DNA of 35,256 nucleotides from a virus (lineage: Duplodnaviria > Heunggongvirae > Uroviricota > Caudoviricetes), in IMG/VR virus record IMGVR_UViG_2684622582_000004; one strand, 5' to 3'. The notes below the pieces were generated by a model. It saw only the letters and a list, made by a program, of their open reading frames with translations. It was not told the DNA's origin and did no database searches. This document shows, one piece after another, positions 5,294 to 31,103 of the stretch (the stretch's first letter is position 1; each line of letters opens with the position of its first letter). The translations under genes were made by a program, and so were the position numbers.

Positions 5294-7741
5294 TTAACCG
5301 TCATGCATCATGCTGGCACGGGCGCGCGCACGTTTATCCCGCTCGTATTTTTCGAGCGCATCCTGTAACTGGCGGTCAAGCTGTGTCCCCGGTGCAGTAC
5401 CACCCGTCAGGCTGATGTGATATTCGTTTTTACTCTGGTCCACATAAGAGCGGCCAGCCGGTGCCGTGACCGGCTGATAAGCCTGATAACCTGCATAAGA
5501 GCTGGTCGCCGGAATATAACCACCGCTGCCATACGTGGCGGCTTGAGTTCTGGCGGCGGTCTGGTCAAGTGTGTCTGACTCTTTGTTGATAACACCGAGT
5601 TTTTCCAGTACCCAGTCAATACCACTGCGCAGTTTGTTGAACGCATTAAGCGGCAGCATCAGCGCGTCAGCCAGTGCCTGCCCGAACATGACGCCCGTGT
5701 CACGGCAACGGTTCAGGGTGTCCTGGGTAGCTTTGACCGGGGCAATCAGGTTTTTAAACCACTGCCACGCGGCCTGTAACTTTTCACCCAGCCAGTCAAA
5801 CACCGGCTTAAGTGGCGTGAACAGTTCCCCCACTGGCGCAAATGCTGCTTTCAGCCCTTCAACCACACCGCCAAAGAATGCGCTGACAGGCTCCCAGTAT
5901 TTACGGATAAGCAACGCCCCGGCGACAATGGTGGCCACCACGGCCACAACCGGCCAGCTAATCGCCCCGATGGCGGTCATAACAGCACTGCCAACCGTCG
6001 TGAAGACTGCCCCCATTGCGCCTGCTGCCGCGATGATGGCATTAATGCCGGTGATAACCGGCCAGGCTACAAGACCAATTGCACCGATGATGCCAGTAAG
6101 CGCCAGTGCACCACCGACAATAAGGCCGATGGTTGACGCCAGTGATTTGTTTTTCTGGATCCAGCCGTCGAGTTTTAACACATACTTTGTGGCCGTCTGC
6201 GTGAGCTTACGCAGTGCGCCTGCCTGCTGGTCAAACAGGTCAGTCCCCACCGCCTCATAAGCGGACTGAAACTCCTTAAAGTCACCGCCGAGGTTGTCCT
6301 GCATGATATTTACCAGCTCTGCGGTCTTTCCGTCTGAGGCTTTAAACGCAGCGGTCAGTTTGTCCAGCTTTCCGGTTGAGGCGGCAGTCATCAGCACGGC
6401 GGCGGCTGAACTGGCCTCCTCCCCGAAAATGGTTTTCATGTATTCAGCCTGCTGGGCAGTACCGAGCCGGTTTTTCTCAAAGCTGGCCTGCATTTCTTTC
6501 AGAATGGTAAATACTGGCCGGGTGTTTCCCTTACTGTCTGAGGTTTTCACGCCAAGCTCTTTCAGTGCATCCCATGCTTTTCCCGTCGGTGCCTGCAGGC
6601 GGCTTAACACGGCACGGCTTCCCGTCCCCGCCATTGAACCGGTAATTTTTGCATCATGCAGCGCCCCGACCATTGCGGCGGTTTCTTCAATGCTGACACC
6701 AGCATTTTTTGACACAGGTGCGGCATAGGTCAGCGCATCGCTCATGCCATCAAAATCGGCGGCGGTTTTGTTCATCGTCATGGAGAGAACATCCCCGATA
6801 TGAGCGACCTTATCGTTTGAAAGCTGAAAGGCGGATTTCATCCCCATCAGCAGGGCGGCGTTTTCTTCCATCGTGCGGCGGTTCGCCAGCGCCATGTTCA
6901 GCGTGACCGGCGTTGCCGCCTGAATGGCATCAACATCCCCACCCGCTTTCGCGATGATAATCTGTGCACCGGCTGCATCATCTGCCGAGGCGGCGGTATT
7001 GTCGCCGAGCTGGCGCGCCTGCTTGCGTAGCGCGGCCATTTCGGCAGAGTCTTTTTCCACACCGAGCACGGCCTGTAATTCTGAGTTTTTCTGCGCAAAC
7101 TCATAACCGGGCATCAGCAGCTTAACTCCGGCCATCGTTCCCGCCGCCGCAATACCCACACCGGCAGCGCCCACCGAGGCCATATTTCCGGCCAGTTCCT
7201 TTCCGACCTGATAACGCTGTTTTACTGCATTAAGTTTTGCCTGTTGCGCACTGACACGCGCCAGCGCATCACGCTGACGGTTAAGCTGTGTGGTGGTTTC
7301 GCTGATACGATTTTTCAGCCCTCGTTCATCATGCGCCAGATTACGGGTATTAATACCCGCCTGACTCAATTCCTGACGCTGGCGCTGTACCGACAATCTC
7401 AGGCTGTTATATTTCGCCTGTAACTCAGACGCGTTTTTACGCGCGGCTTCCATTGCCTTTGCCTGTGCATTTGTCGGTCGTTCAGTATTTGTAAACTGGA
7501 CAGCCAGAGCTGCGGCTTCCTGTCTGGCTTTTTTCAGTTCCTGACCAGTCACGGCTAGCTGTGCACTGGTCTTGCGGAATCCCTCAATACGGGATGCGTG
7601 ACCGTTCAGCTCGCGCAGCGATTTTTGTGTTTCCCGGATGTCCCCCGACAGCGACTTACTCGCTGTGCGGATGGATTTAAACGGGCGGGATGCCTGGTCA
7701 ACAGCCCTGAGCAATACCTTTAATTTTACATTGTTACTCAT
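5294..7741 (-). CDS. T: tail tape-measure protein (P2 gpT-like), 815 aa
   Basis: Long Ala/Gln-rich coiled-coil-like N-terminal part and hydrophobic Gly/Ala-rich middle, typical of tape-measure proteins. Position between E/E' and U; P2 gpT length. Confidence 0.88.
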   Translation of the reverse strand: MSNNVKLKVLLRAVDQASRPFKSIRTASKSLSGDIRETQKSLRELNGHASRIEGFRKTSAQLAVTGQELKKARQEAAALAVQFTNTERPTNAQAKAMEAARKNASELQAKYNSLRLSVQRQRQELSQAGINTRNLAHDERGLKNRISETTTQLNRQRDALARVSAQQAKLNAVKQRYQVGKELAGNMASVGAAGVGIAAAGTMAGVKLLMPGYEFAQKNSELQAVLGVEKDSAEMAALRKQARQLGDNTAASADDAAGAQIIIAKAGGDVDAIQAATPVTLNMALANRRTMEENAALLMGMKSAFQLSNDKVAHIGDVLSMTMNKTAADFDGMSDALTYAAPVSKNAGVSIEETAAMVGALHDAKITGSMAGTGSRAVLSRLQAPTGKAWDALKELGVKTSDSKGNTRPVFTILKEMQASFEKNRLGTAQQAEYMKTIFGEEASSAAAVLMTAASTGKLDKLTAAFKASDGKTAELVNIMQDNLGGDFKEFQSAYEAVGTDLFDQQAGALRKLTQTATKYVLKLDGWIQKNKSLASTIGLIVGGALALTGIIGAIGLVAWPVITGINAIIAAAGAMGAVFTTVGSAVMTAIGAISWPVVAVVATIVAGALLIRKYWEPVSAFFGGVVEGLKAAFAPVGELFTPLKPVFDWLGEKLQAAWQWFKNLIAPVKATQDTLNRCRDTGVMFGQALADALMLPLNAFNKLRSGIDWVLEKLGVINKESDTLDQTAARTQAATYGSGGYIPATSSYAGYQAYQPVTAPAGRSYVDQSKNEYHISLTGGTAPGTQLDRQLQDALEKYERDKRARARASMMHDG

Positions 7742-8749: not shown

Positions 8750-9940
8750 TTAATTGCTGTTAACCGAGGTAACCAGACTTGCCAGGTATCTGGAAGTAAT
8801 ACGCTGGCGCAGGGTCAGGTTTTCGAGAGGAGGCACCGGGGTATAGTCGTAGTCGATATACAGTTTTCCGGCCTTGAGGGTTTCCGCATCATTGGCTTCT
8901 TCACTGAACCAGCATGTGCCATCCACGATATAACCGTTGTTTTTCAGTTCGCGGAATTTGGCATTAATGCCATCAATGATGTCACGAATCAGCGTTGCGG
9001 TAATTGGCTTATCAATAGCCCACATGTGCGCCTCGGCCATCGTGTCGGCCAGTACCTGCGCGGTGCGGGTGTAGCTTTCAAAGAGGAACAGCGGGTCATC
9101 AGAGCAGGTACGGTTACCCCAGAAGCGGAAGCCGTCGCGGCGAATCAGCGTAGTGATGCCTGACTCGTTAAGCAGGTCAGCATCAGTGCCGGACTTCTGC
9201 AAATCCCAGAATACAGAGGCGCTGATGCCGGTAACACCATTTACCCCGACGTTGGACAGCGTTTTATGCCAGCCCTGCTCCTGGTCGATTTTGGCACGCA
9301 GCCCCAGCGCACGGGCGGTGGCATACGCGGTGGCAGTGGTACTGGTAACCGTATCCCATGCGAGGAAATCCGGCCAGATGACCATCAGCTCACGCTGGCT
9401 GAAATTCTGACGGTAGGCTTTTGCCTCGGAAATGGTTTTACAGCCCCATGCGCTGATATACCCGAATGCATTCAGTTCCTGGCATACCGATGCCAGTGCG
9501 ACGGCAACCTCTTTGGTGTCCAGCCCCGGCACACCAAGAATGCGCGGTTTAACGCCGGTAACCGACTCAGCCCCCATCAGGGCTTTCAGTCCGGTGTACT
9601 GACCGTTTTCGTCAGTGGTGCCGATGATATTGGAAACGGTCTGCGCGAGTTTCGTTTCCTCGTCGTCGCCGGTGCTGTCTTCCACACGCACGACAACGGT
9701 GACCGGTTTTGACTGGTCGGCGATAGCCTGCAACGATGCCGCCAGCGTGCCTTTTTTACCGGCCTTTGCAATCGCGCTCTGCACATTGGTAATCAGCACC
9801 GGTTTATTGAGGGGAAAGGTTTCCGCATCCGCATCGCTGGCCGTGCAGACCATGCCGACAATGGCAGTGGATACGGTGGAAATGACGCGGGTGCCGTCGT
9901 TAATCTCCAGCACCTGCACGCCGTGATGATAGTCACTCAT
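8750..9940 (-). CDS. FI: tail sheath protein (P2 gpFI-like), 396 aa
   Basis: Synteny and P2-matching length; ATG at 9940. Confidence 0.88.
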   Translation of the reverse strand: MSDYHHGVQVLEINDGTRVISTVSTAIVGMVCTASDADAETFPLNKPVLITNVQSAIAKAGKKGTLAASLQAIADQSKPVTVVVRVEDSTGDDEETKLAQTVSNIIGTTDENGQYTGLKALMGAESVTGVKPRILGVPGLDTKEVAVALASVCQELNAFGYISAWGCKTISEAKAYRQNFSQRELMVIWPDFLAWDTVTSTTATAYATARALGLRAKIDQEQGWHKTLSNVGVNGVTGISASVFWDLQKSGTDADLLNESGITTLIRRDGFRFWGNRTCSDDPLFLFESYTRTAQVLADTMAEAHMWAIDKPITATLIRDIIDGINAKFRELKNNGYIVDGTCWFSEEANDAETLKAGKLYIDYDYTPVPPLENLTLRQRITSRYLASLVTSVNSN

Positions 9941-10105
9941 CCGTTTAACTCCGTGGTTAATGGGTGAGTGGTATTTTCTGTTGTGCCGGAGATGTCAGGC
10001 TATTTGTCCCGGTTGGCTAATCGACAGCACAACCACCGGTAAAGAAAAGGCGGGCAATTCGCTCACCTGCCCTGATTTGTACTCACTTATTTTCCGACTG
10101 ACAAT

Positions 10106-10213
10106 TTATTTACCTTCCAACTCAAGTCTAATCCGGATCCCCCAGATATGAGATATCTGAAGTGGCCTTTTTTGACCGATGGTACGGTCTTTATTCCACG
10201 GTGATGTTTTCAT
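10106..10213 (-). CDS. possible small basic protein (35 aa), speculative
   Basis: ATG at 10213 preceded by GGAGA about 7 nt upstream. The SD lies in the arm of a 9-bp-stem hairpin (10217-10225 / 10235-10243). No homology recognised. Confidence 0.2.
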   Translation of the reverse strand: MKTSPWNKDRTIGQKRPLQISHIWGIRIRLELEGK

Positions 10214-10319
10214 ATTCAAATCTCCTGCAATGTGGGAGATTTGAGTATGGTTGTCTCTCAAGAGCGAAAATAAGTCAACTATCACTAGTTGTTGCGCATG
10301 TACGTATTCTGTCAATTAA

Positions 10320-11162
10320 TTATTGACAATCATCAATTCTGGAATGATCAAAATCATCATATCGAATTATAGTCTGGTTGACTGTATCTATTGTTGGTGT
10401 CATTTCTGTTATAATATCCTGATAACCTAAAGAGTTAAATACATTTACTAAGGCCTCACACCGAAGGGCCGTAGCAATTACAAAATTATAAATTGCCAGC
10501 CGTTTATTTTCTTGTTTAACTGCAAGAATGAATTCGATAGCAGTAGTTTCATCACTTTGGATTGCATTATATAGAGATACTATATTTACCATATCATCAG
10601 AGAATGTATGTATTGAATCACAAAGGGGAACGTAATGGGCATGATAGTGTGTTTCCCAGCCAATTAATTCAAAAAGTTTTCTGGTTCCTGGATATTCAGG
10701 TGTATTTGGCCACAATCTATTAAATAGATCAGTTAGTTCTTTTCCCATGCGAATCCTTTCATTTGCTGCTGGATTAGTCATTCCTTTGGATTTTAAACAC
10801 TCCAGCCACCGTTTTCCATTACTATGAACTAATTTCTTACTAGCCTTGAGTAATGCTTGTGCATTTTCGCCATCATCTATTGCTATATAAAATTGATTGG
10901 CAGCCTGTTCTATTATAACCCTAGCTAATACTTCCGATGCTGAAAAGGCTCCTATATTCAAAGAAGAGATAGCCTGATTACTAAGTTCATTCAGTACATT
11001 AAAGTACTGTAAGACCATCAATTTTTGTTCCACACCCTTTAGGTTGTCTATTTTATTTTTATGCTCCTCAAATTTTGCATGGATATATTTATTTATCGCG
11101 GCTATTTTTTTTACATCTTCGTCAAGATCAAACGGGCAACGTCCAAACAATTCTTTTTTCAT
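10320..11162 (-). CDS. hypothetical protein, 280 aa, AT-rich cargo gene in the P2 Z/fun moron slot (function unknown)
   Basis: ATG at 11162 with AGGAGA SD 7 nt upstream and a TATAAT -10 at 11206-11201 (minus strand). Hand-counted sample lines are ~28-42% GC versus ~55% in flanking tail genes. No family motif recognised. Confidence 0.7.
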   Translation of the reverse strand: MKKELFGRCPFDLDEDVKKIAAINKYIHAKFEEHKNKIDNLKGVEQKLMVLQYFNVLNELSNQAISSLNIGAFSASEVLARVIIEQAANQFYIAIDDGENAQALLKASKKLVHSNGKRWLECLKSKGMTNPAANERIRMGKELTDLFNRLWPNTPEYPGTRKLFELIGWETHYHAHYVPLCDSIHTFSDDMVNIVSLYNAIQSDETTAIEFILAVKQENKRLAIYNFVIATALRCEALVNVFNSLGYQDIITEMTPTIDTVNQTIIRYDDFDHSRIDDCQ

Positions 11163-11200
11163 ATATTTCTCCTGTTGTACAAGCTTCCATAAGTTGGCAG

Positions 11201-11206
11201 ATTATA
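11201..11206 (-). promoter_or_regulatory. candidate sigma70 -10 hexamer (TATAAT) for the 280-aa cargo gene
   Basis: Perfect TATAAT about 35 nt upstream of the ATG. No good -35 seen. Confidence 0.3.
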
Positions 11207-11583
11207 CACTGAAGATTACCTATAAATAGCTGTGCGGGATAGCAGATCAGTGCAAGAAGTACAACCAAGTGAACTGTGCGTATTCAGATACCTGGCCTAA
11301 CGTTCGCGATAGCCGTCCCCTGCACAAAGCCATATATTAGATGTATTAGCTCAGACCTTATCTGACAGGTTGAGTAGGTAGAATCTAATCAAAGCTGACA
11401 GTCTGGTTTGGACTGTGAGTTCAACCGATGGATGCAACACACAGCGATCTACGGACATTACTAGCATAGCTGTGTATTAATCATCGGGGAGCAGGTCAGT
11501 CCGCTCCTAGCACAGAGCAGACTGTCAGATTAGGCTTTACTCTGTGCTATAGATACGTTAGCTCACTCCAGAGATCATACAAC

Positions 11584-12111
11584 TTATTGCGGCATTTCCG
11601 GCCATTCAGGATTTGCAGGATCCACACGGCTGACCAGAACACTGTAGCGTTCCCATGCTTCCAGTCGGCTACGCTCCTCATCTGTTGCCATATTCAGTCT
11701 GACAGAGCGTTCCAGTGGCTGAATGATAGTTTCAGCTTCGGAAAGCAAAGCTGACTTCTGTAATTCCGCCAGTTGCAGCTGTTCGTCTGCCGTATAAATC
11801 CGCTTAATCACAGCACCATCCTTAAACATCCATTTACCTGAGTCATCAGCACGTCGGTTGGCGGTAATATCAGGAACCTCGACAACGCTAAAACCTTCAG
11901 GGTTAAGCGTTGAAGCATCTCTGGTGATGCCGACAATTATATTATTCTCGTCGTAAACAATCTTTATCGTGTCTTCCTGAAAATTACTTACTTCCTCATA
12001 CCAGTTTTTTCCCTCTTCGGACCATAACCAGATAACATCAAAATTTTTTGTCAGTTGATATTGGGCAACAGTTTTTGGATTACCCGCAGTAATATTTTTT
12101 AAATGCTGCAT
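11584..12111 (-). CDS. G: tail fiber assembly chaperone (P2 gpG-like), 175 aa
   Basis: Immediately downstream of the tail fiber gene; P2 gpG length. Confidence 0.85.
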
Positions 12112-12114
12112 AAA

Positions 12115-14856
12115 TTACACCTGTGCAACGTTATACCATGTGCCATTGATGTATTTTTGTATTGGTCTGAATACTGCGGGGTCATCACCATCGACTTCAC
12201 CGACAATACCAAGCCCTGTAATTACGTGCCCTGCTTTCTCATACATCACCCCTTTCTGCATGGTCTGAACAACACGAGTGCCAAGTCTGACATCTCTCAC
12301 ATAGCGGGAATCAAAGTTACCGTAATCCGAAGGATTAACACGCCCCGTAATATTTATGGTTTTATTACTTTGAATGCTTCCGGAGACAAAGCGCATAACA
12401 TGGACGCTATTAGCATAAACATCCAGATTACCATCACCATTTTGTTTAAAGCCCGTGTCATTATCACCCAAAACAATCGAATTACCGCCAAGAGCACTGG
12501 ATGTTCCGATGCCCAGTGCACCATTCAATTGACCACCAGATAACGACAGTGCACCGACATCTCCCGCTGTAGGTTTTCGCGTTGTGGTATAAAACTCAGA
12601 CCAGTCAGCCTCGAATCCGTAACCATCACGAGCAGAACGATAAAAAATACCGCCGTTCTTATAATTAACGCGGAACTGGGCTGCGGGACAACTTCCTTCA
12701 CCGATATTAAAATGAAGAATTAACGTTGATGCCCCACCAGTAGTTGCGTTATAGGCTCCGCTACTCCAGTTCCATCCAACGGCTTTATCATTCGCAACGG
12801 TGTCTCCTGTTTTTCCTGAAGCAAATGCACCAATATTTTTCGGCGTCAGGTTAATATCTGATGTTCCATCAAACGAAACGTTATTAATTTTACGGGCTGT
12901 TTTCAGCTTTGTTGCTGTCGCCGCATTGCCGGACAGTTCACCAGAGAGGCCTGCACTGAATGTCTGTTTTGCCTCCCATGTCTGGGCTTCGTCGATAATT
13001 GGTAGCCGACGAATATTGAAGCTACGCTCCCCAGGATTGCCATATAAGCGGACTGTAAAAAAACGATAGTTGGTTTTGTTTGAGGTGCTGCGCCATACCT
13101 GCATTGAACGGGCGACACCTCCACCTTCACTGGGGCCAACAGTGATATTTATCAGGTTAGTATCAATGACGCCCCATTCCATCCCATCGGGGATATTGGT
13201 CATATCGGAGAGTCTGACAGTTATCATGCTGCCCGGCACAAAGTCGTAGGTCTGCCAGTCCAGACTGGATAACCTGTCGGTAACACCGCCGACACCTAAT
13301 TTAGTGAGTAATGATTTTGAGTTGTAAACTTCCGCCCATTCCCCCCAGTCAGCTTCACCGCTGGCACGAGTTCGTTGAAATGTCCGGTTTTTATAGGCAT
13401 CCGTTGCAGAAACTGTCGTATATGTCTGGATATACGATTCAATATCACAACGTTTTTTCACTTCAACTATTGAGCCAACAGCAAGATCTTTAGAGTCGGT
13501 GACTGGTGCGTTTGTGGCCTGTTTCGTGACGCTATAAATACCAGGCTTTAAAAGGTCATCAAGATCCCCTGAATAAGTCCATCCCGTGGACTGATACCCA
13601 ACAGCAATCCAGTCCTCCCATTGTGGATTCTCTGCATCCCATGAGGCAGTCAGTCCGCGAATGTACATAGTCCCACTACGGGTGGTGTAACGTTGCATTC
13701 TCCCATACAGACCGCCTTCAAAGACTTCCAGAATACCCTGACCAAAGCTCCCGTCCTCCGGGAAATGACGTTCAAATGAGGCTATTGATGTACTGCTATT
13801 GCGCCATATTCCCAGGTGTTCCGCGCCACCTAAAGAATTCAGGTCAATTGACGTGCTTAATGGTCGAGTCCCGCTTGTAATAACTCTCCATGCACTCCAT
13901 GTTGGACTGGCTGGGTTCCATTCTGCATCAAGCATCCGAATGTAAATATTACCGGTTCGGGTGGTGTAGCGTTGTGTGCAGTGAAAGCGACCAGCATTGA
14001 ATACTTCCAGAACCCCATTGCCTTTATCTTCAGGGTAACCAGACTCTGGTTTTGCAGTGGATTGTGACGGACATGACCACGTTCCAAGATATTTTTCTTC
14101 TGGGCCATAGGAGTCAAGATTGTCAGTGGTTGGAATCATTCCATTGTGTTTCATAAACGTCAGGCTGGTAACGCCAATATTGTCCAGAAAAGCTGATTTA
14201 TCCTGGATATCTGCACCGTTCTGATTTTTCGCCAGACGTGAATTTGCGTTGTCATTTGCTGCCTTGACCGCTTTTGGCGTTGCCGCCAGCTTTTCACTGG
14301 TGCTGTTTGTTGCACTGCTTAACTGAGTAAAACCTTTTTCTGTCAGCGTGGCGTCAGGATGGCGGCGGGACTGCTCATGCTCTGCGATTTTGTCATCGAC
14401 GTAATCCTGCGTCGCCATCACCGTGCTGGCATCAATACTCAGCTCAACGGACGCCACGTTGCTGAGAATAATAACCATGCGGCAGGTCTGCGCACGTCCG
14501 GAGCCTTCAGCCAGTTCTGGCTTATAGCTTTCTGCCATGTTGGATACCGCAATCAGTGTTCCGGCATCGTCATACAGACCAAGTTCACGCATCCAGAAGC
14601 CGCCCACTTCTGGCGGTACAACCAGTTCAGCCACGATATAGTTTTTATTCTTGTTATCCACGCTGACTTTATTCAGAGCGTGACGCCAGACCTCATGCAC
14701 CAGTTTCGTCTGACCGGCATCCGGCACCGGCAATTTGCCATTACCGTCACCCACGGCCATTGCAGACAGGTTTACTTTTTTCCCGCCGGGGACAGTGGCG
14801 GCTGCCAGCTTTGCGGCTCCGGCAGTAGTGATAACGGTTTTAAATTTCGTGCTCAT
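12115..14856 (-). CDS. H: tail fiber protein (P2 gpH-like, mosaic), 913 aa
   Basis: N-terminus (MSTKFKTVITTAGAAKLAAAT...) and C-terminus (...NFDSRYVRDVRLGTRVVQ...FRPIQKYINGTWYNVAQV) resemble P2 gpH as I recall it. The central region differs and contains an internal tandem domain repeat. Confidence 0.85.
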   Translation of the reverse strand: MSTKFKTVITTAGAAKLAAATVPGGKKVNLSAMAVGDGNGKLPVPDAGQTKLVHEVWRHALNKVSVDNKNKNYIVAELVVPPEVGGFWMRELGLYDDAGTLIAVSNMAESYKPELAEGSGRAQTCRMVIILSNVASVELSIDASTVMATQDYVDDKIAEHEQSRRHPDATLTEKGFTQLSSATNSTSEKLAATPKAVKAANDNANSRLAKNQNGADIQDKSAFLDNIGVTSLTFMKHNGMIPTTDNLDSYGPEEKYLGTWSCPSQSTAKPESGYPEDKGNGVLEVFNAGRFHCTQRYTTRTGNIYIRMLDAEWNPASPTWSAWRVITSGTRPLSTSIDLNSLGGAEHLGIWRNSSTSIASFERHFPEDGSFGQGILEVFEGGLYGRMQRYTTRSGTMYIRGLTASWDAENPQWEDWIAVGYQSTGWTYSGDLDDLLKPGIYSVTKQATNAPVTDSKDLAVGSIVEVKKRCDIESYIQTYTTVSATDAYKNRTFQRTRASGEADWGEWAEVYNSKSLLTKLGVGGVTDRLSSLDWQTYDFVPGSMITVRLSDMTNIPDGMEWGVIDTNLINITVGPSEGGGVARSMQVWRSTSNKTNYRFFTVRLYGNPGERSFNIRRLPIIDEAQTWEAKQTFSAGLSGELSGNAATATKLKTARKINNVSFDGTSDINLTPKNIGAFASGKTGDTVANDKAVGWNWSSGAYNATTGGASTLILHFNIGEGSCPAAQFRVNYKNGGIFYRSARDGYGFEADWSEFYTTTRKPTAGDVGALSLSGGQLNGALGIGTSSALGGNSIVLGDNDTGFKQNGDGNLDVYANSVHVMRFVSGSIQSNKTINITGRVNPSDYGNFDSRYVRDVRLGTRVVQTMQKGVMYEKAGHVITGLGIVGEVDGDDPAVFRPIQKYINGTWYNVAQV

Positions 14857-28820: not shown

Positions 28821-31103
28821 TTATTGCTCTGAATAACAATAAAACCAACTCCACTCATCAGCGACCGGATACGTAAATTTTTTCCCGTTGTAATTTACGG
28901 TCGCTCCACGCGCCAGCGCCTCCATCTCCCATCGCTGCGGCCTGATACCGTTCTGAGCAAGGTCAACGCGGATACGGATAATTTGCATTCGTTCCGACCG
29001 GGTCAGTCTGGCCGATGGCGCTATTTCATGCGGTTTTAGCGGGCTTCCGTTTCTTTGCTGACGATTTAGCGTTCTCAGCCCGTGTTTTAATGCGCCCCTG
29101 AGCGCCTTCACGACCTCCGGGTCATTCCATTCGATAACACCGTCATTAACCAGATTAAGCACTGCTGCGGCGTGCTCAGAAGGTGTGGGAGCCGGTAACG
29201 AAGTATCACCACCAGTGAGCTTTCCACAGTTATTGACAGGACTCCGAGGCGCGGCGATGCCGCTTTTTAAAGTCAAAGGCTCAACGACCGGAACTTTCGG
29301 CACAATGCGCCAGTCCGTCGTTCTGGTGATATGAATATGACGCGCGCCGAGATGCGGCGCGTAAATGCCGACCACTCTCTCGACTTCTTCCTCGTACTCG
29401 TTAACTTCATCCGACGGGCTACGGGCGACTCTGACAGTCTGACAATCGCGCGGGACATTTGCCCCACCCTGCGCGCTGATATACAACGCAAAATCACCAC
29501 TGTCTGCGGCGGCGCGTGCAGCCTCGACGCGCTCGTCAAACTCATCAGCAATGCTGACGCCGCGCGGCAATTTGCGTAGTTCACGGTAAGCCCCCATTGT
29601 CGGCAGGCCAACCGTTTTAAATTGCGGGATGCGCCACGTTGACGCCCATGCGGTAACAGCCGCTGCAGTGTCTTTCAGCGGCCTGCCGGTGTCGTTATCG
29701 AGCTGACCATCCAGTGCATAGCCGTCGATGTTTTTTGAAATGTATTTCGCGATATATCCCGCAGCACCGCCCCGGTTAAGGTGTTTTGCCTGAAAACGGT
29801 TTCGCGCGGCTCCTCTTTCGTCGCCATCCTCTTTGAGCGCATAGCGACGCATGATTTCGATAATCTGGTTACGCTGGCGTGAATTACAAAAAAGCATCAT
29901 ATGCCAGTGCGGCGTTCCGTCGTGGTGTGGCTCGACGACACGCAAACCGTAGACCTGTAAATCATTATCCTTGAATGCCGTGCGCATCAGGCTCCAGATA
30001 CGGCAGAGATAACGCTGCGCATCCTTTGGATTAAATGCCTCATCGTTCCAGCCGTGATTAAGCTGCACGGTTTTACTTTCGCCTTTTCCTACCTGACGTG
30101 TCGGGTGATACTTTGACGGCGCGGTCAGCGTGATAAACATCCCCACATCACCCTCTGCAGCGGCGTAACGCTCAATACCGGCAATGGTGTTCATCAGCTC
30201 CATCCGGCGAATTTCAGGATTAGAAATACTGCCCATCACCTTACTGATAAGGTCGATGCGCTCGCCGGTTTCCCTGTTTTCAAGGTCACACGATTTAAGA
30301 AATTCCAGATTTGCCTGGCGGCGCGCACGCACATCACGAATGGCGTGTTTACTGGCATAAGGAGAACGGTCTTTATTGACCTCCCCGACAGCTATCAGTA
30401 ACGCTTCATGCCAGCGCATACGCTGGCCTTTAAGCTGATGAGTCCACCACTCATCGTTAAACAGACGGGCAATGGCAGAATATGCCTGCCTCGTGGTCAT
30501 CTGTCCTTTACGGTATTTTTTCCAGTAGAGCGGGGAAATATTGAAAGCACGTGCAGCGCCAGCAACATGACCATACAGGTGAGCCTGCGCCTCATCCGTA
30601 AACAGCGATTCTTTTTCACCATGCGCATCAACCCATGCATCGCAGAGTTCCTCATACATCATGAAAAGCTGCGATGAGATACGGGCGGCAAACTTTTTCA
30701 GCTCCTTGTCATTCATTCCCGGCAGGCGCGCATAGTGGTCACGCTCTGCCAGAAACAGCAACGACGCGTCGGTGTTCATTTCATGGCGCTGATTCACACG
30801 CTCAATGCGCGGCCATAAACGACGCTGAAAAGTAGATGTGAGGAAATAAAACCCGTGCACCGGGCTTTTATTGCGCCGGATGTAGTCATAGCGTGAAGTA
30901 AACAGCGAGCGCAAAAAGTAAGGCAGGCGGTTAATCGTGGATAAAACACCTTGCACCTGACGCATCTCGTCACGTGTAAGAGGTCTTTCGCGCCCGACAG
31001 CCTCGCGTGGCGCGTTCCATGCATAAGCACCGGTAAACGCCTTACCGGTGCCTGCGGTAAATGCTGACGGAGGGACAAAACGCCCGGAGGCTTTAACGGC
31101 CAT
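28821..31103 (-). CDS. A: replication initiation endonuclease (P2 gpA-like), 760 aa
   Basis: ATG at 31103 (MAVKASGRFVPP...); the ORF-track start at 31145 is TTG. Size and position as P2 gpA. Confidence 0.87.
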   Translation of the reverse strand: MAVKASGRFVPPSAFTAGTGKAFTGAYAWNAPREAVGRERPLTRDEMRQVQGVLSTINRLPYFLRSLFTSRYDYIRRNKSPVHGFYFLTSTFQRRLWPRIERVNQRHEMNTDASLLFLAERDHYARLPGMNDKELKKFAARISSQLFMMYEELCDAWVDAHGEKESLFTDEAQAHLYGHVAGAARAFNISPLYWKKYRKGQMTTRQAYSAIARLFNDEWWTHQLKGQRMRWHEALLIAVGEVNKDRSPYASKHAIRDVRARRQANLEFLKSCDLENRETGERIDLISKVMGSISNPEIRRMELMNTIAGIERYAAAEGDVGMFITLTAPSKYHPTRQVGKGESKTVQLNHGWNDEAFNPKDAQRYLCRIWSLMRTAFKDNDLQVYGLRVVEPHHDGTPHWHMMLFCNSRQRNQIIEIMRRYALKEDGDERGAARNRFQAKHLNRGGAAGYIAKYISKNIDGYALDGQLDNDTGRPLKDTAAAVTAWASTWRIPQFKTVGLPTMGAYRELRKLPRGVSIADEFDERVEAARAAADSGDFALYISAQGGANVPRDCQTVRVARSPSDEVNEYEEEVERVVGIYAPHLGARHIHITRTTDWRIVPKVPVVEPLTLKSGIAAPRSPVNNCGKLTGGDTSLPAPTPSEHAAAVLNLVNDGVIEWNDPEVVKALRGALKHGLRTLNRQQRNGSPLKPHEIAPSARLTRSERMQIIRIRVDLAQNGIRPQRWEMEALARGATVNYNGKKFTYPVADEWSWFYCYSEQ

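Follow-up and report, generated by a model that had tools for sequence, protein, structure and literature searches.

What fills the 421 bp that separate a tail-fibre assembly gene from a small cargo gene in a P2-like prophage of Escherichia coli, and does this DNA serve the cargo gene? The interval lies at positions 11163–11583 of the 35,256-nt viral record IMGVR_UViG_2684622582_000004, the whole of which is called here the window, and which is 100% identical to the chromosome of strain MS7163 across the gap region. Its upstream edge is the stop codon (11586–11584) of the P2 gene G, which encodes the tail-fibre assembly protein (11584–12111, minus strand; Pfam Caudo_TAP, E=6.7e-34), and at its other edge lies a gene for a 280-aa protein with a DUF5677 domain (10320–11162, minus strand). 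Pfam matches to G and to the tail sheath gene FI (9940–8750, minus strand), together with the RefSeq annotation of the identical MS7163 locus, place the gap in P2 Z/fun, between G and FI, which is one of two classical variable loci in P2-like phages (PMC9122126). The initial annotation, made from the sequence alone, had taken the interval for the leader of the 280-aa gene, carrying a regulator-binding array, a cis-acting RNA element or a small RNA (sRNA). We suggest instead, with a probability of roughly 0.7, that the gap is made up of stacked DNA recombination sites, together with remnants of such sites, which lie at the left border of the Z/fun hotspot and give way to a short stretch of true promoter sequence, and that the sequence patterns reflect a site-specific exchange of cassettes at two types of core site, A and B, by a small tyrosine recombinase whose gene is linked to them. 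The gap is very probably a mosaic of recombination sites and not an RNA.

The individual features that had been noticed in the gap are real. The strong hairpin has its arms at 11508–11517 (TAGCACAGAG) and 11540–11549 (CTCTGTGCTA), exact reverse complements separated by a loop of 22 nt, and the weaker one pairs GGAGC (11488–11492) perfectly with GCTCC (11503–11507). The motif CTGWCAG occurs as TCTGACAG at 11361–11368, as CTGACAG at 11395–11401 and as CTGTCAG at 11522–11528, the last in the hairpin loop, and it is kept in homologous loci. A TATAAT is found on the minus strand at 11206–11201, 38 nt ahead of the ATG (11162–11160), with the ribosome-binding site (RBS) AGGAG at 11173–11169, and only these last ~40 nt of the gap resemble a promoter and an RBS. 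The gap is non-coding, without open reading frames (ORFs) of 60 aa or more; those inside it have 38 to 46 aa, and a 61-aa ORF on the plus strand (11044–11229) overlaps its edge by 67 bp. The contrast in GC content was also confirmed, being 0.43–0.47 in the gap vs 0.32–0.37 in the 280-aa gene.

When the gap was compared by BLAST with 5,426 E. coli genomes, it was split into parts with different distributions, the ~85 bp of 11497–11583 being present in 430 genomes and the entire gap in only 54. The gap is thus a mosaic of three histories. The homology of the window to P2 stops at 10108 and restarts at 11497/11499. The block 10109–11499 has 90% identity to a lambdoid prophage locus of E2348/69 and is also found in a small plasmid-like record, and the block 10109–11522 has 96.5% identity to a chromosomal island of a Buttiauxella genome. 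A gene for the same small tyrosine recombinase comes after the DUF5677 gene in every context. Reading the minus strand from G, we find an 82-bp left repeat with an A-type core, a 45-bp element here called E45, a B-type junction (TCGCT), the DUF5677 cassette, a B-type site (TCGCTC) and a stump of the recombinase gene. The left repeat, E45 and an internal copy of the repeat form a shell of 246 bp (11338–11583).

The part of the gap next to G belongs to the P2 backbone. An inverted, full-length copy of an 85-bp two-box repeat (r2) occupies 11502–11583 on the minus strand (nhmmer, r2 positions 4–85, E=3e-5), and has 87 to 92% identity to the "left inverted repeat" annotated in GenBank AJ512676–83, over 84–87 bp, and to 72 phage records; for the wider interval 11497–11613, identity to the annotated repeat is likewise 87–92%. 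The GenBank entries cover the "proviral Z-region" of P2-EC isolates and also annotate a "right inverted repeat" beside FI, so the gap shares both its place and its sequence with the Z/fun inverted repeats, known since 2004 (GenBank deposits of 2003–4; Nilsson, Karlsson & Haggard-Ljungquist, Mol Biol Evol 21:1). In a review, the passage on fun states that inverted repeats flank this gene, enabling site-specific recombination, and cites Nilsson 2004 (PMC8987985). The finding as first noted is ordinary, a rediscovery of the Z/fun boundary repeats.

We fetched 80 P2-like contigs through gpG and scored 79 of them for the left repeat. It follows G in 76, whatever the cargo, with ~30 unrelated cargoes represented. 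After the G stop, the consensus (76/79) is GTTGTATGA..CTAT-RGCACAGAG-TAAAGCCTAATCTGACAGTCYG-CTCTGTGCY-ARGAGCGGAC, and the cargoes of these loci start or diverge immediately past AGCGGAC. The 10-bp-stem hairpin (11508–11549) begins 35 nt past the G stop, lies inside the P2 backbone segment 11499–11583 and overlaps, with its arm 11508–11517, the spacer and inner arm of the A site. The supposed tie of these elements to the cargo gene is not supported by this distribution, as the hairpin and one box are P2 backbone kept beside some 30 unrelated cargoes. The other two motif copies belong, as its two boxes, to a further copy of the 85-bp boundary repeat. In this set, the left repeat also presents a 12-bp presence/absence polymorphism past the G stop (alignment columns 2–13, GTTGTATGAGCT[CTGGTGTGAGCT]); the short form has CTGACA as box 1, and in the long form, which is that of the window, this box has decayed to CTTACA or CTAACG.

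The profile of the right repeat matches the left repeat across the full 85 bp in inverted orientation, and left and right are inverted copies of one element, each of which has TGTA at its outer end and a pair of CTGACA(G) boxes spaced by 33 bp. Over the whole window, nhmmer found the 85-bp repeat only at 10075–10108, 11338–11419 and 11502–11583, and since three copies are present, the three motif copies of the gap are boxes of this repeat. In the left repeat, box 2 is CTGACAG (11528–11522) and box 1 has decayed to CTAACG. The internal third copy (11338–11419, plus strand, E=1.2e-20), aligned with the right repeats of P2-EC58 and P2-EC46 and with the copy of the L009 island, has the orientation of the P2 right repeat, with CTGACAG at 11362–11368 and 11395–11401, 33 bp apart, and a decayed core; it is 94–98% conserved among three cassette contexts. 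From the P2 right inverted repeat itself only the outer third is left in the window, 34 bp at 10075–10108 (plus strand, nhmmer positions 3–36), cut right past the first CTGACA box. Short matches at 11401–11441 under an "ISCfr4 transposase" annotation (H90) were considered as a possible pseudogene remnant and discarded, as they correspond to the edge of a truncated pseudogene, a repeated junction sequence and not coding homology.

Whether the motif recurs elsewhere in the prophage, as the initial annotation had asked, has a divided answer. CTGWCAG sites do recur, with 13 in the 35-kb window vs 3.0 expected, a number reached in 0 of 100 shuffles, and three of the 13 fall within the 421 bp; this is a roughly four-fold enrichment prophage-wide. 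The sites outside the gap are isolated and mark no other elements; examples from outside the hotspot are those at 15, 5883, 13214, 18272, 20963, 29431 and 31410. The one outside site examined in detail, the exact 12-mer TCTGACAGTCTG at 29430, was rejected as a further element and attributed to chance, since it lies inside a 774-aa ORF with no repeat around it.

The G–FI interval of one P2-like contig, L018 (4529–4660), has only 132 bp and no boundary repeats: a GC hairpin and TTTTCTTT are followed directly by the sequence upstream of FI. The repeat-free state of L018 indicates that the whole repeat-bounded unit is an insertion, and this comparison implies that the hotspot itself would be an ancient one.

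The last 24 bp of the left repeat are a dyad, with the P2 consensus GTCCGCTCT-GTGCCA-AGAGCGGAC, a perfect 9-6-9 arrangement of two arms and a spacer. In the window, this A-type core site (11499–11522, minus strand) reads GTCTGCTCT-GTGCTA-GGAGCGGAC and is the breakpoint between backbone and cargo. Among 71 P2 sites, the A spacer is GTGCCA in 38 and GTGCTA in 13. On the right side of the P2 loci a second spacer class, B, is found: the cargo ends with GTCCGCTnn-TCGCTC, followed by the backbone arm AAAGCAGAC and TGTCAG, the spacer being TCGCTC in 37 of 51 P2 sites. The cargo-side arm has the consensus RRAGCGGAC(R)TT, kept over 86 unrelated cargo starts. The window contains a B-type half site, GTCCGTAGA-TCGCT, at the upstream junction of the DUF5677 cassette (11443–11456, minus strand) and a B-type site beside the recombinase gene, GACTTATTT-TCGCTC-TTGAGAGAC (10253–10276, minus strand), whose cargo-side arm is degenerate; AGCGA is repeated at 10263–10267 and 11443–11447.

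The same two spacers flank the gene of the small tyrosine recombinase. The window retains only the first 35 codons of this ~200-aa protein (10109–10213, minus strand), cut at 10109, where RefSeq has a 153-bp integrase pseudogene (10109–10261). Intact homologues are present in L008 and L010, with a match to Pfam Phage_integrase (PF00589, E=1.9e-18) and with HxxR and a C-terminal Y seen in the sequence; a PDB sequence search with the recombinase returned no match. In 80 fetched loci encoding relatives of the ~194-aa recombinase, these proteins share 88–96% aa identity across Buttiauxella, Pantoea, Serratia, Pectobacterium, Klebsiella, Enterobacter and others. Upstream of the gene, in ~50 genomes, conservation extends from the ATG through a palindrome with the RBS to GTCCGCTnn-TCGCTC-ATAAGGGAC, with unrelated sequences beyond it, and downstream it passes through a 9-bp-stem hairpin to AGCAGCCCT-GTGCCA-GnAGCGGAC, with unrelated sequences again beyond. 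The B spacer is TCGCTC in 47 of the 53 sites upstream of the recombinase gene, and the A spacer GTGCCA in 52 of the 58 downstream. This recombinase module of 685 bp was found in 850 of the 5,426 complete E. coli genomes (~15%), with 22 places on plasmids, and in 752 E. coli genomes its homology is confined to the interval from the B to the A spacer. The resulting topology is [cargo]-B-(recombinase or P2)-A-[cargo], in which the P2 backbone takes the place of the recombinase module.

The palindrome upstream of the recombinase gene is ACTCAAATCTCC-N8-GGAGATTTGA(G/A)T in the window (10214–10252, minus strand), with the RBS of the recombinase in its 3' arm. Across the ~50 genomes (L093–L164, at ~5950–6000), it is seen as a 12-bp-stem palindrome, ACTCAAATCTCC-N8-GGAGATTTGAGT, directly upstream of the ATG and with AGGAG in the 3' arm, and in L136 its 8-nt loop is inverted. 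A role as operator, or as a lock on translation of the recombinase, is possible. In the Nissle island (L173), the module is located between hypothetical genes, near dynamin-family and patatin-like genes.

Sites of both classes are also arranged in arrays around the recombinase gene. In 58 recombinase loci (672 kb), site regexes found 125 B and 86 A sites (211) co-oriented with the recombinase gene and 5 opposite, with ~3 in shuffles; the regexes were written after the sites had been seen, which inflates these counts, although neither the strand bias nor the clustering of gaps can arise in this way. The gaps from B to A cluster at 33–37 bp and at ~678 bp, the latter being the recombinase module. 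A tandem arrangement, [A cargo B]-16 bp-[A cargo B]-15 bp-[A cargo B], is seen in the Buttiauxella island (L093, 3565–8626). This array, from a metagenome-assembled genome (MAG), adjoins a small serine recombinase gene, and one of its units holds the DUF5677 cassette and the tyrosine recombinase. Literature searches found no description of recombinase-linked arrays, and both the recombinase link and the way the arrays are built may be new. The 9-6-9 cores, the spacer classes, the third repeat copy and E45 also come from our own analysis, as do the recombinase link and the arrays, although they may overlap with Nilsson 2004.

Cargo ends shared by both contexts change partner at the spacer. In L049 and L052, the P2 backbone arm adjoins a cargo end that is identical (100/100 nt) to the one adjoining the recombinase arm in Leclercia L098, and the two contexts part at TCGCTC. 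A second common end, with 87–88% identity over 67 nt, is found in L025/L026 and in Klebsiella L113, and on the A side a cargo start is common to L051/L065 and L141. The presence of the same sites around the recombinase gene in many gut bacteria suggests how the cassettes move.

E45 (11454–11498, plus strand; GACATT..TAACAT..GTATTAAT..GGGGAGCAGGTCA; nhmmer E=8e-13) is a cassette-boundary element, and in the window it is the sole "cargo" between the A site and the B-type junction, making this a cargo-less unit. The weak hairpin is composed of the E45 tail and an arm of the A site. In 46 distinct copies, the head (GACATT) is always next to the core-site arm and the tail (GGGAGCAGGTCA) points toward the cargo. 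Copies were found in ~200 E. coli records and in 26 of the 80 recombinase loci, with recurrent positions just within either P2 repeat, ~60 bp upstream and ~76 bp downstream of the recombinase gene. Three interpretations of E45 were tried and abandoned: a sigma-70 promoter, as TTGATA-N17-TTTATA fits variant L029 and the -10 is not conserved in the others; a simple dyad TAACAT-N6-ATGTTA, true only of a subset of copies; and an IHF site at AATCAA, which does not fit the IHF consensus. In E. coli AR_0017 (L006, 3001–5521), a NotI-family restriction-modification pair is located between two inverted E45 copies.

The DUF5677 cassette has 1175 bp (10268–11442, minus strand) and comprises a 23-bp end, the internal r2 copy, a proximal leader of 175 bp and the 280-aa gene with its 3' flank. 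The encoded protein matches Pfam PF18928 (E=5.3e-10) and phrog_4167, a PHROGs family of unknown function, and had no match in PADLOC or NCBIfam. The true promoter-proximal leader is restricted to 11163–11337 (minus strand), where the TATAAT (-10) and the RBS are kept in all three contexts (window, lambdoid prophage and Buttiauxella) and no good -35 is present. Between the window and the lambdoid copy, identity is 94–96% in the internal repeat and adjacent spacer, 92% in the DUF5677 coding sequence and 87% in the proximal leader, which has a 19-bp deletion in the lambdoid copy. In the "empty" loci L008, L099, L101, L108 and L164, the head of E45 passes straight into TCGCTC-ATAAGGGAC-recombinase, and in the window and in Buttiauxella the 1175-bp unit stands between these two parts, flanked by direct TCGCT repeats.

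In the sibling viral contigs L010, L012, L014, L016 and L017, the same insert includes a near-complete recombinase gene and a 129-aa membrane ORF, the right repeat is whole, and ~1 kb more cargo is retained than in the window. L010 is 99.6% identical to the window on the G side of the insert (10109–11711), and only 86–91% in the backbone on the FI side (9854–10108), which indicates that the window is a truncated or recombinant derivative. The join 10108/10109 is located inside both the right repeat and the ORF of the recombinase, and the prophage is accordingly a recombinant and no simple product of a deletion. L010 encodes the 129-aa predicted membrane protein (phrog_4155, a family without assigned function) at 6506–6895 (minus strand), between the recombinase gene and the right repeat, and the window lacks it. 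In the lambdoid prophage of E2348/69 (L005, 1124–3119), an AAA-ATPase and HNH-endonuclease pair lies downstream of a frameshifted recombinase gene and is possibly a defence-type cargo; the site regex found no A site near this pair.

Taken as a mechanism, these observations would work as follows. The recombinase would cut and rejoin DNA inside the 6-bp spacers, with A recombining only with A and B only with B, so that a segment lying between an A and a B site would be swappable between any two replicons carrying the pair, and a circle with one site would insert at the matching site. The dyad geometry of tyrosine recombinase core sites, with inverted arms of 9–13 bp around an asymmetric spacer of 6–8 bp, is seen in the perfect 9-6-9 consensus of P2, and the junctions switch at the spacer, where strand exchange would take place. 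We consider it rather more probable than an even chance that the linked recombinase acts at the spacers. E45 may bind protein as well. As the P2 backbone has the position that the recombinase module has in the chromosomal arrays, the phage hotspot could be a docking bay served in trans, and since the recombinase is truncated in the window, the arrangement would be frozen there unless the enzyme were supplied in trans. The two direct CTGACAG boxes 33 bp apart beside the core might be accessory binding sites, a role that we put forward with some doubt. The initial proposal of a regulatory leader or RNA of the cargo gene is not supported, but that of a protein-binding array is plausible, with a recombinase acting on DNA as the binding protein.

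Several points weigh against this exchange model. The enzyme could be another than the linked recombinase, since the link between recombinase and sites is read from sequence. Only two cargo types are shared by the P2 and the recombinase contexts in our sample, E45 is at only a minority of cargo ends, and neither the 10-bp stem nor the 9-6-9 dyad covaries in the closely related P2 set. The 85-bp repeat is rare beside the recombinase gene, with 13 weak matches in the 80 loci, and this scarcity makes the role of the CTGACAG boxes the weakest link. The junction arms of the DUF5677 cassette, GACTTATTT and TGTGTTGCA, barely match the consensus, and microhomology-mediated events at TCGCT could account for its insertion or for the "empty" state. 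Because of these poor arms, we infer the site-specific entry of this cassette rather than observe it.

Four other explanations were weighed against site-specific exchange. According to the RNA reading, the hairpin and the motifs would fold in a long 5' UTR (untranslated region), or in a separate sRNA, controlling the 280-aa gene. The stem is indeed perfect over 10 bp and conserved in sequence, and the minus strand folds more stably than its shuffles (z = -2.9, 0 of 100 as stable; plus strand z = -1.8), but an excess of folding is expected since the DNA is full of palindromes. A search of 9800–12300 against Rfam 15 (E up to 10) gave three chance-level matches, none on the hairpin. Across 35 left-repeat variants, 91% of the stem cells are paired, with the pairs 36–75 and 42–69 broken without compensation in 15 and 7 variants, and the covariation score and the percentage paired were reached by 159 and 114 of 500 shuffles, in a test of low power because the sequences are closely related. 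The hairpin is P2 backbone shared by ~30 unrelated cargoes, and with the likely -10 at 38 nt from the ATG it would be outside the cargo mRNA. We conclude that there is no positive evidence for an RNA element, and consider this explanation highly improbable. To the same degree we doubt that the late V-W-J-I-H-G operon (tail fibre gene H, 14856–12115, minus strand) has in the hairpin its 3' end signal, for termination or for stabilisation of the mRNA. The start of the hairpin 35 nt past the G stop and its conservation with G in P2 relatives would fit such a role, but it has no U-tract on either strand, its stem does not covary, and a promoter/terminator consensus scan reported neither the hairpin nor the TATAAT promoter. 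Moreover, L018 has a GC hairpin and TTTTCTTT directly after G, and in occupied loci TTTTCTTT and the sequence downstream of it are found beyond the right repeat.

The boxes could also form an operator array, through which a repressor or an activator would adjust the activity of the cargo promoter. A near-palindromic 7-mer spaced by 33 bp, three helical turns, and enriched over chance is what such an array might look like, yet the boxes lie 150–320 bp upstream of the -10, no regulator gene accompanies them, and the same boxes are present in both P2-relative boundary repeats, including the one beside FI, with any cargo in either orientation; we regard this explanation as very unlikely. Less improbable, although still unlikely, is that an old DDE transposon or miniature inverted-repeat transposable element (MITE) inserted between G and its terminator and left the 85-bp repeats as its terminal inverted repeats, with the cargo replaced by homologous recombination and without a dedicated recombinase. 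The ends are inverted, each with two direct sub-terminal boxes, the outer ends read TGTA, the repeat-free relative L018 exists, and 85 bp of homology could serve RecA or Red exchange among P2 phages. However, no transposase was found, and a target duplication could not be defined against the empty site L018. The partners other than P2 share with the phage only a 6-bp spacer and a 9-bp arm, which is too short for homologous recombination, while the junctions are exact, and neither the strict A/B polarity nor the regular spacing around a tyrosine recombinase gene is expected from such a relic. A tRNA/tmRNA scan of the window, made in view of an att-site origin, found none.

The site-specific exchange proposed here has parallels in known systems. 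As in integrons, a tyrosine recombinase gene lies beside a docking site and is followed by co-oriented tandem cassettes split by short conserved sites, the cargo here being enriched in defence-like genes. The two boxes can be likened to the direct repeats DR1 and DR2 beside the core of attI1. Unlike integron integrases, this recombinase has ~200 aa and scores far below the family cut-offs (TIGR02249, 16.2 bits vs 265; NF011946, 15.5 vs 435). By eye, no GTTRRRY core is seen at the junctions, nor are there long imperfect hairpins of the attC type. Two heterospecific site types take the place of attI and attC, and the cassettes are on both sides of the recombinase gene and may carry their own promoters. 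The pdif modules of Acinetobacter plasmids, mobilized by XerC/XerD, are also discrete accessory modules that move between unrelated replicons, each with short dyad sites at its ends whose arms are 6 bp apart, a resemblance in logic only. The arms GTCCGCTnn and nnAGCGGAC are unlike those of dif (by eye), a gene for a dedicated recombinase accompanies the sites, and these are co-oriented and of two spacer classes, vs the alternately inverted XerC-XerD and XerD-XerC sites of pdif. In heterospecific lox/FRT cassette exchange, two sites differing only in the spacer flank a segment, which is swappable and not deletable, and in TnpI-IRS of Tn4430 a core dyad stands beside direct accessory repeats of the same motif. 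Both are functional analogies only, with no sequence or family relationship implied.

It is possible, although we hold this wider proposal only tentatively, that an unnamed cassette-array system of Enterobacterales, with a ~200-aa recombinase and heterospecific 9-6-9 sites (TCGCTC and GTGCCA), shuttles promoter-bearing and often defence-like cassettes among chromosomal islands, plasmids, lambdoid prophages and P2 Z/fun, the phage having the sites and not the enzyme. The P2 hotspots are reservoirs of anti-phage genes, and a survey of thousands of P2/P4 elements in 2026 (September) listed the mechanism of gene exchange with unrelated elements as unresolved (PMC13586616). If true, the exchange proposed here would be the missing mechanism for the traffic of defence genes between P2 hotspots and unrelated mobile elements, and it is a concrete hypothesis as to which enzyme, which 24-bp sites and which compatible partners are involved. 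If confirmed, it would give a rule to delimit cassettes, and hence to find new defence genes, in islands and prophages.

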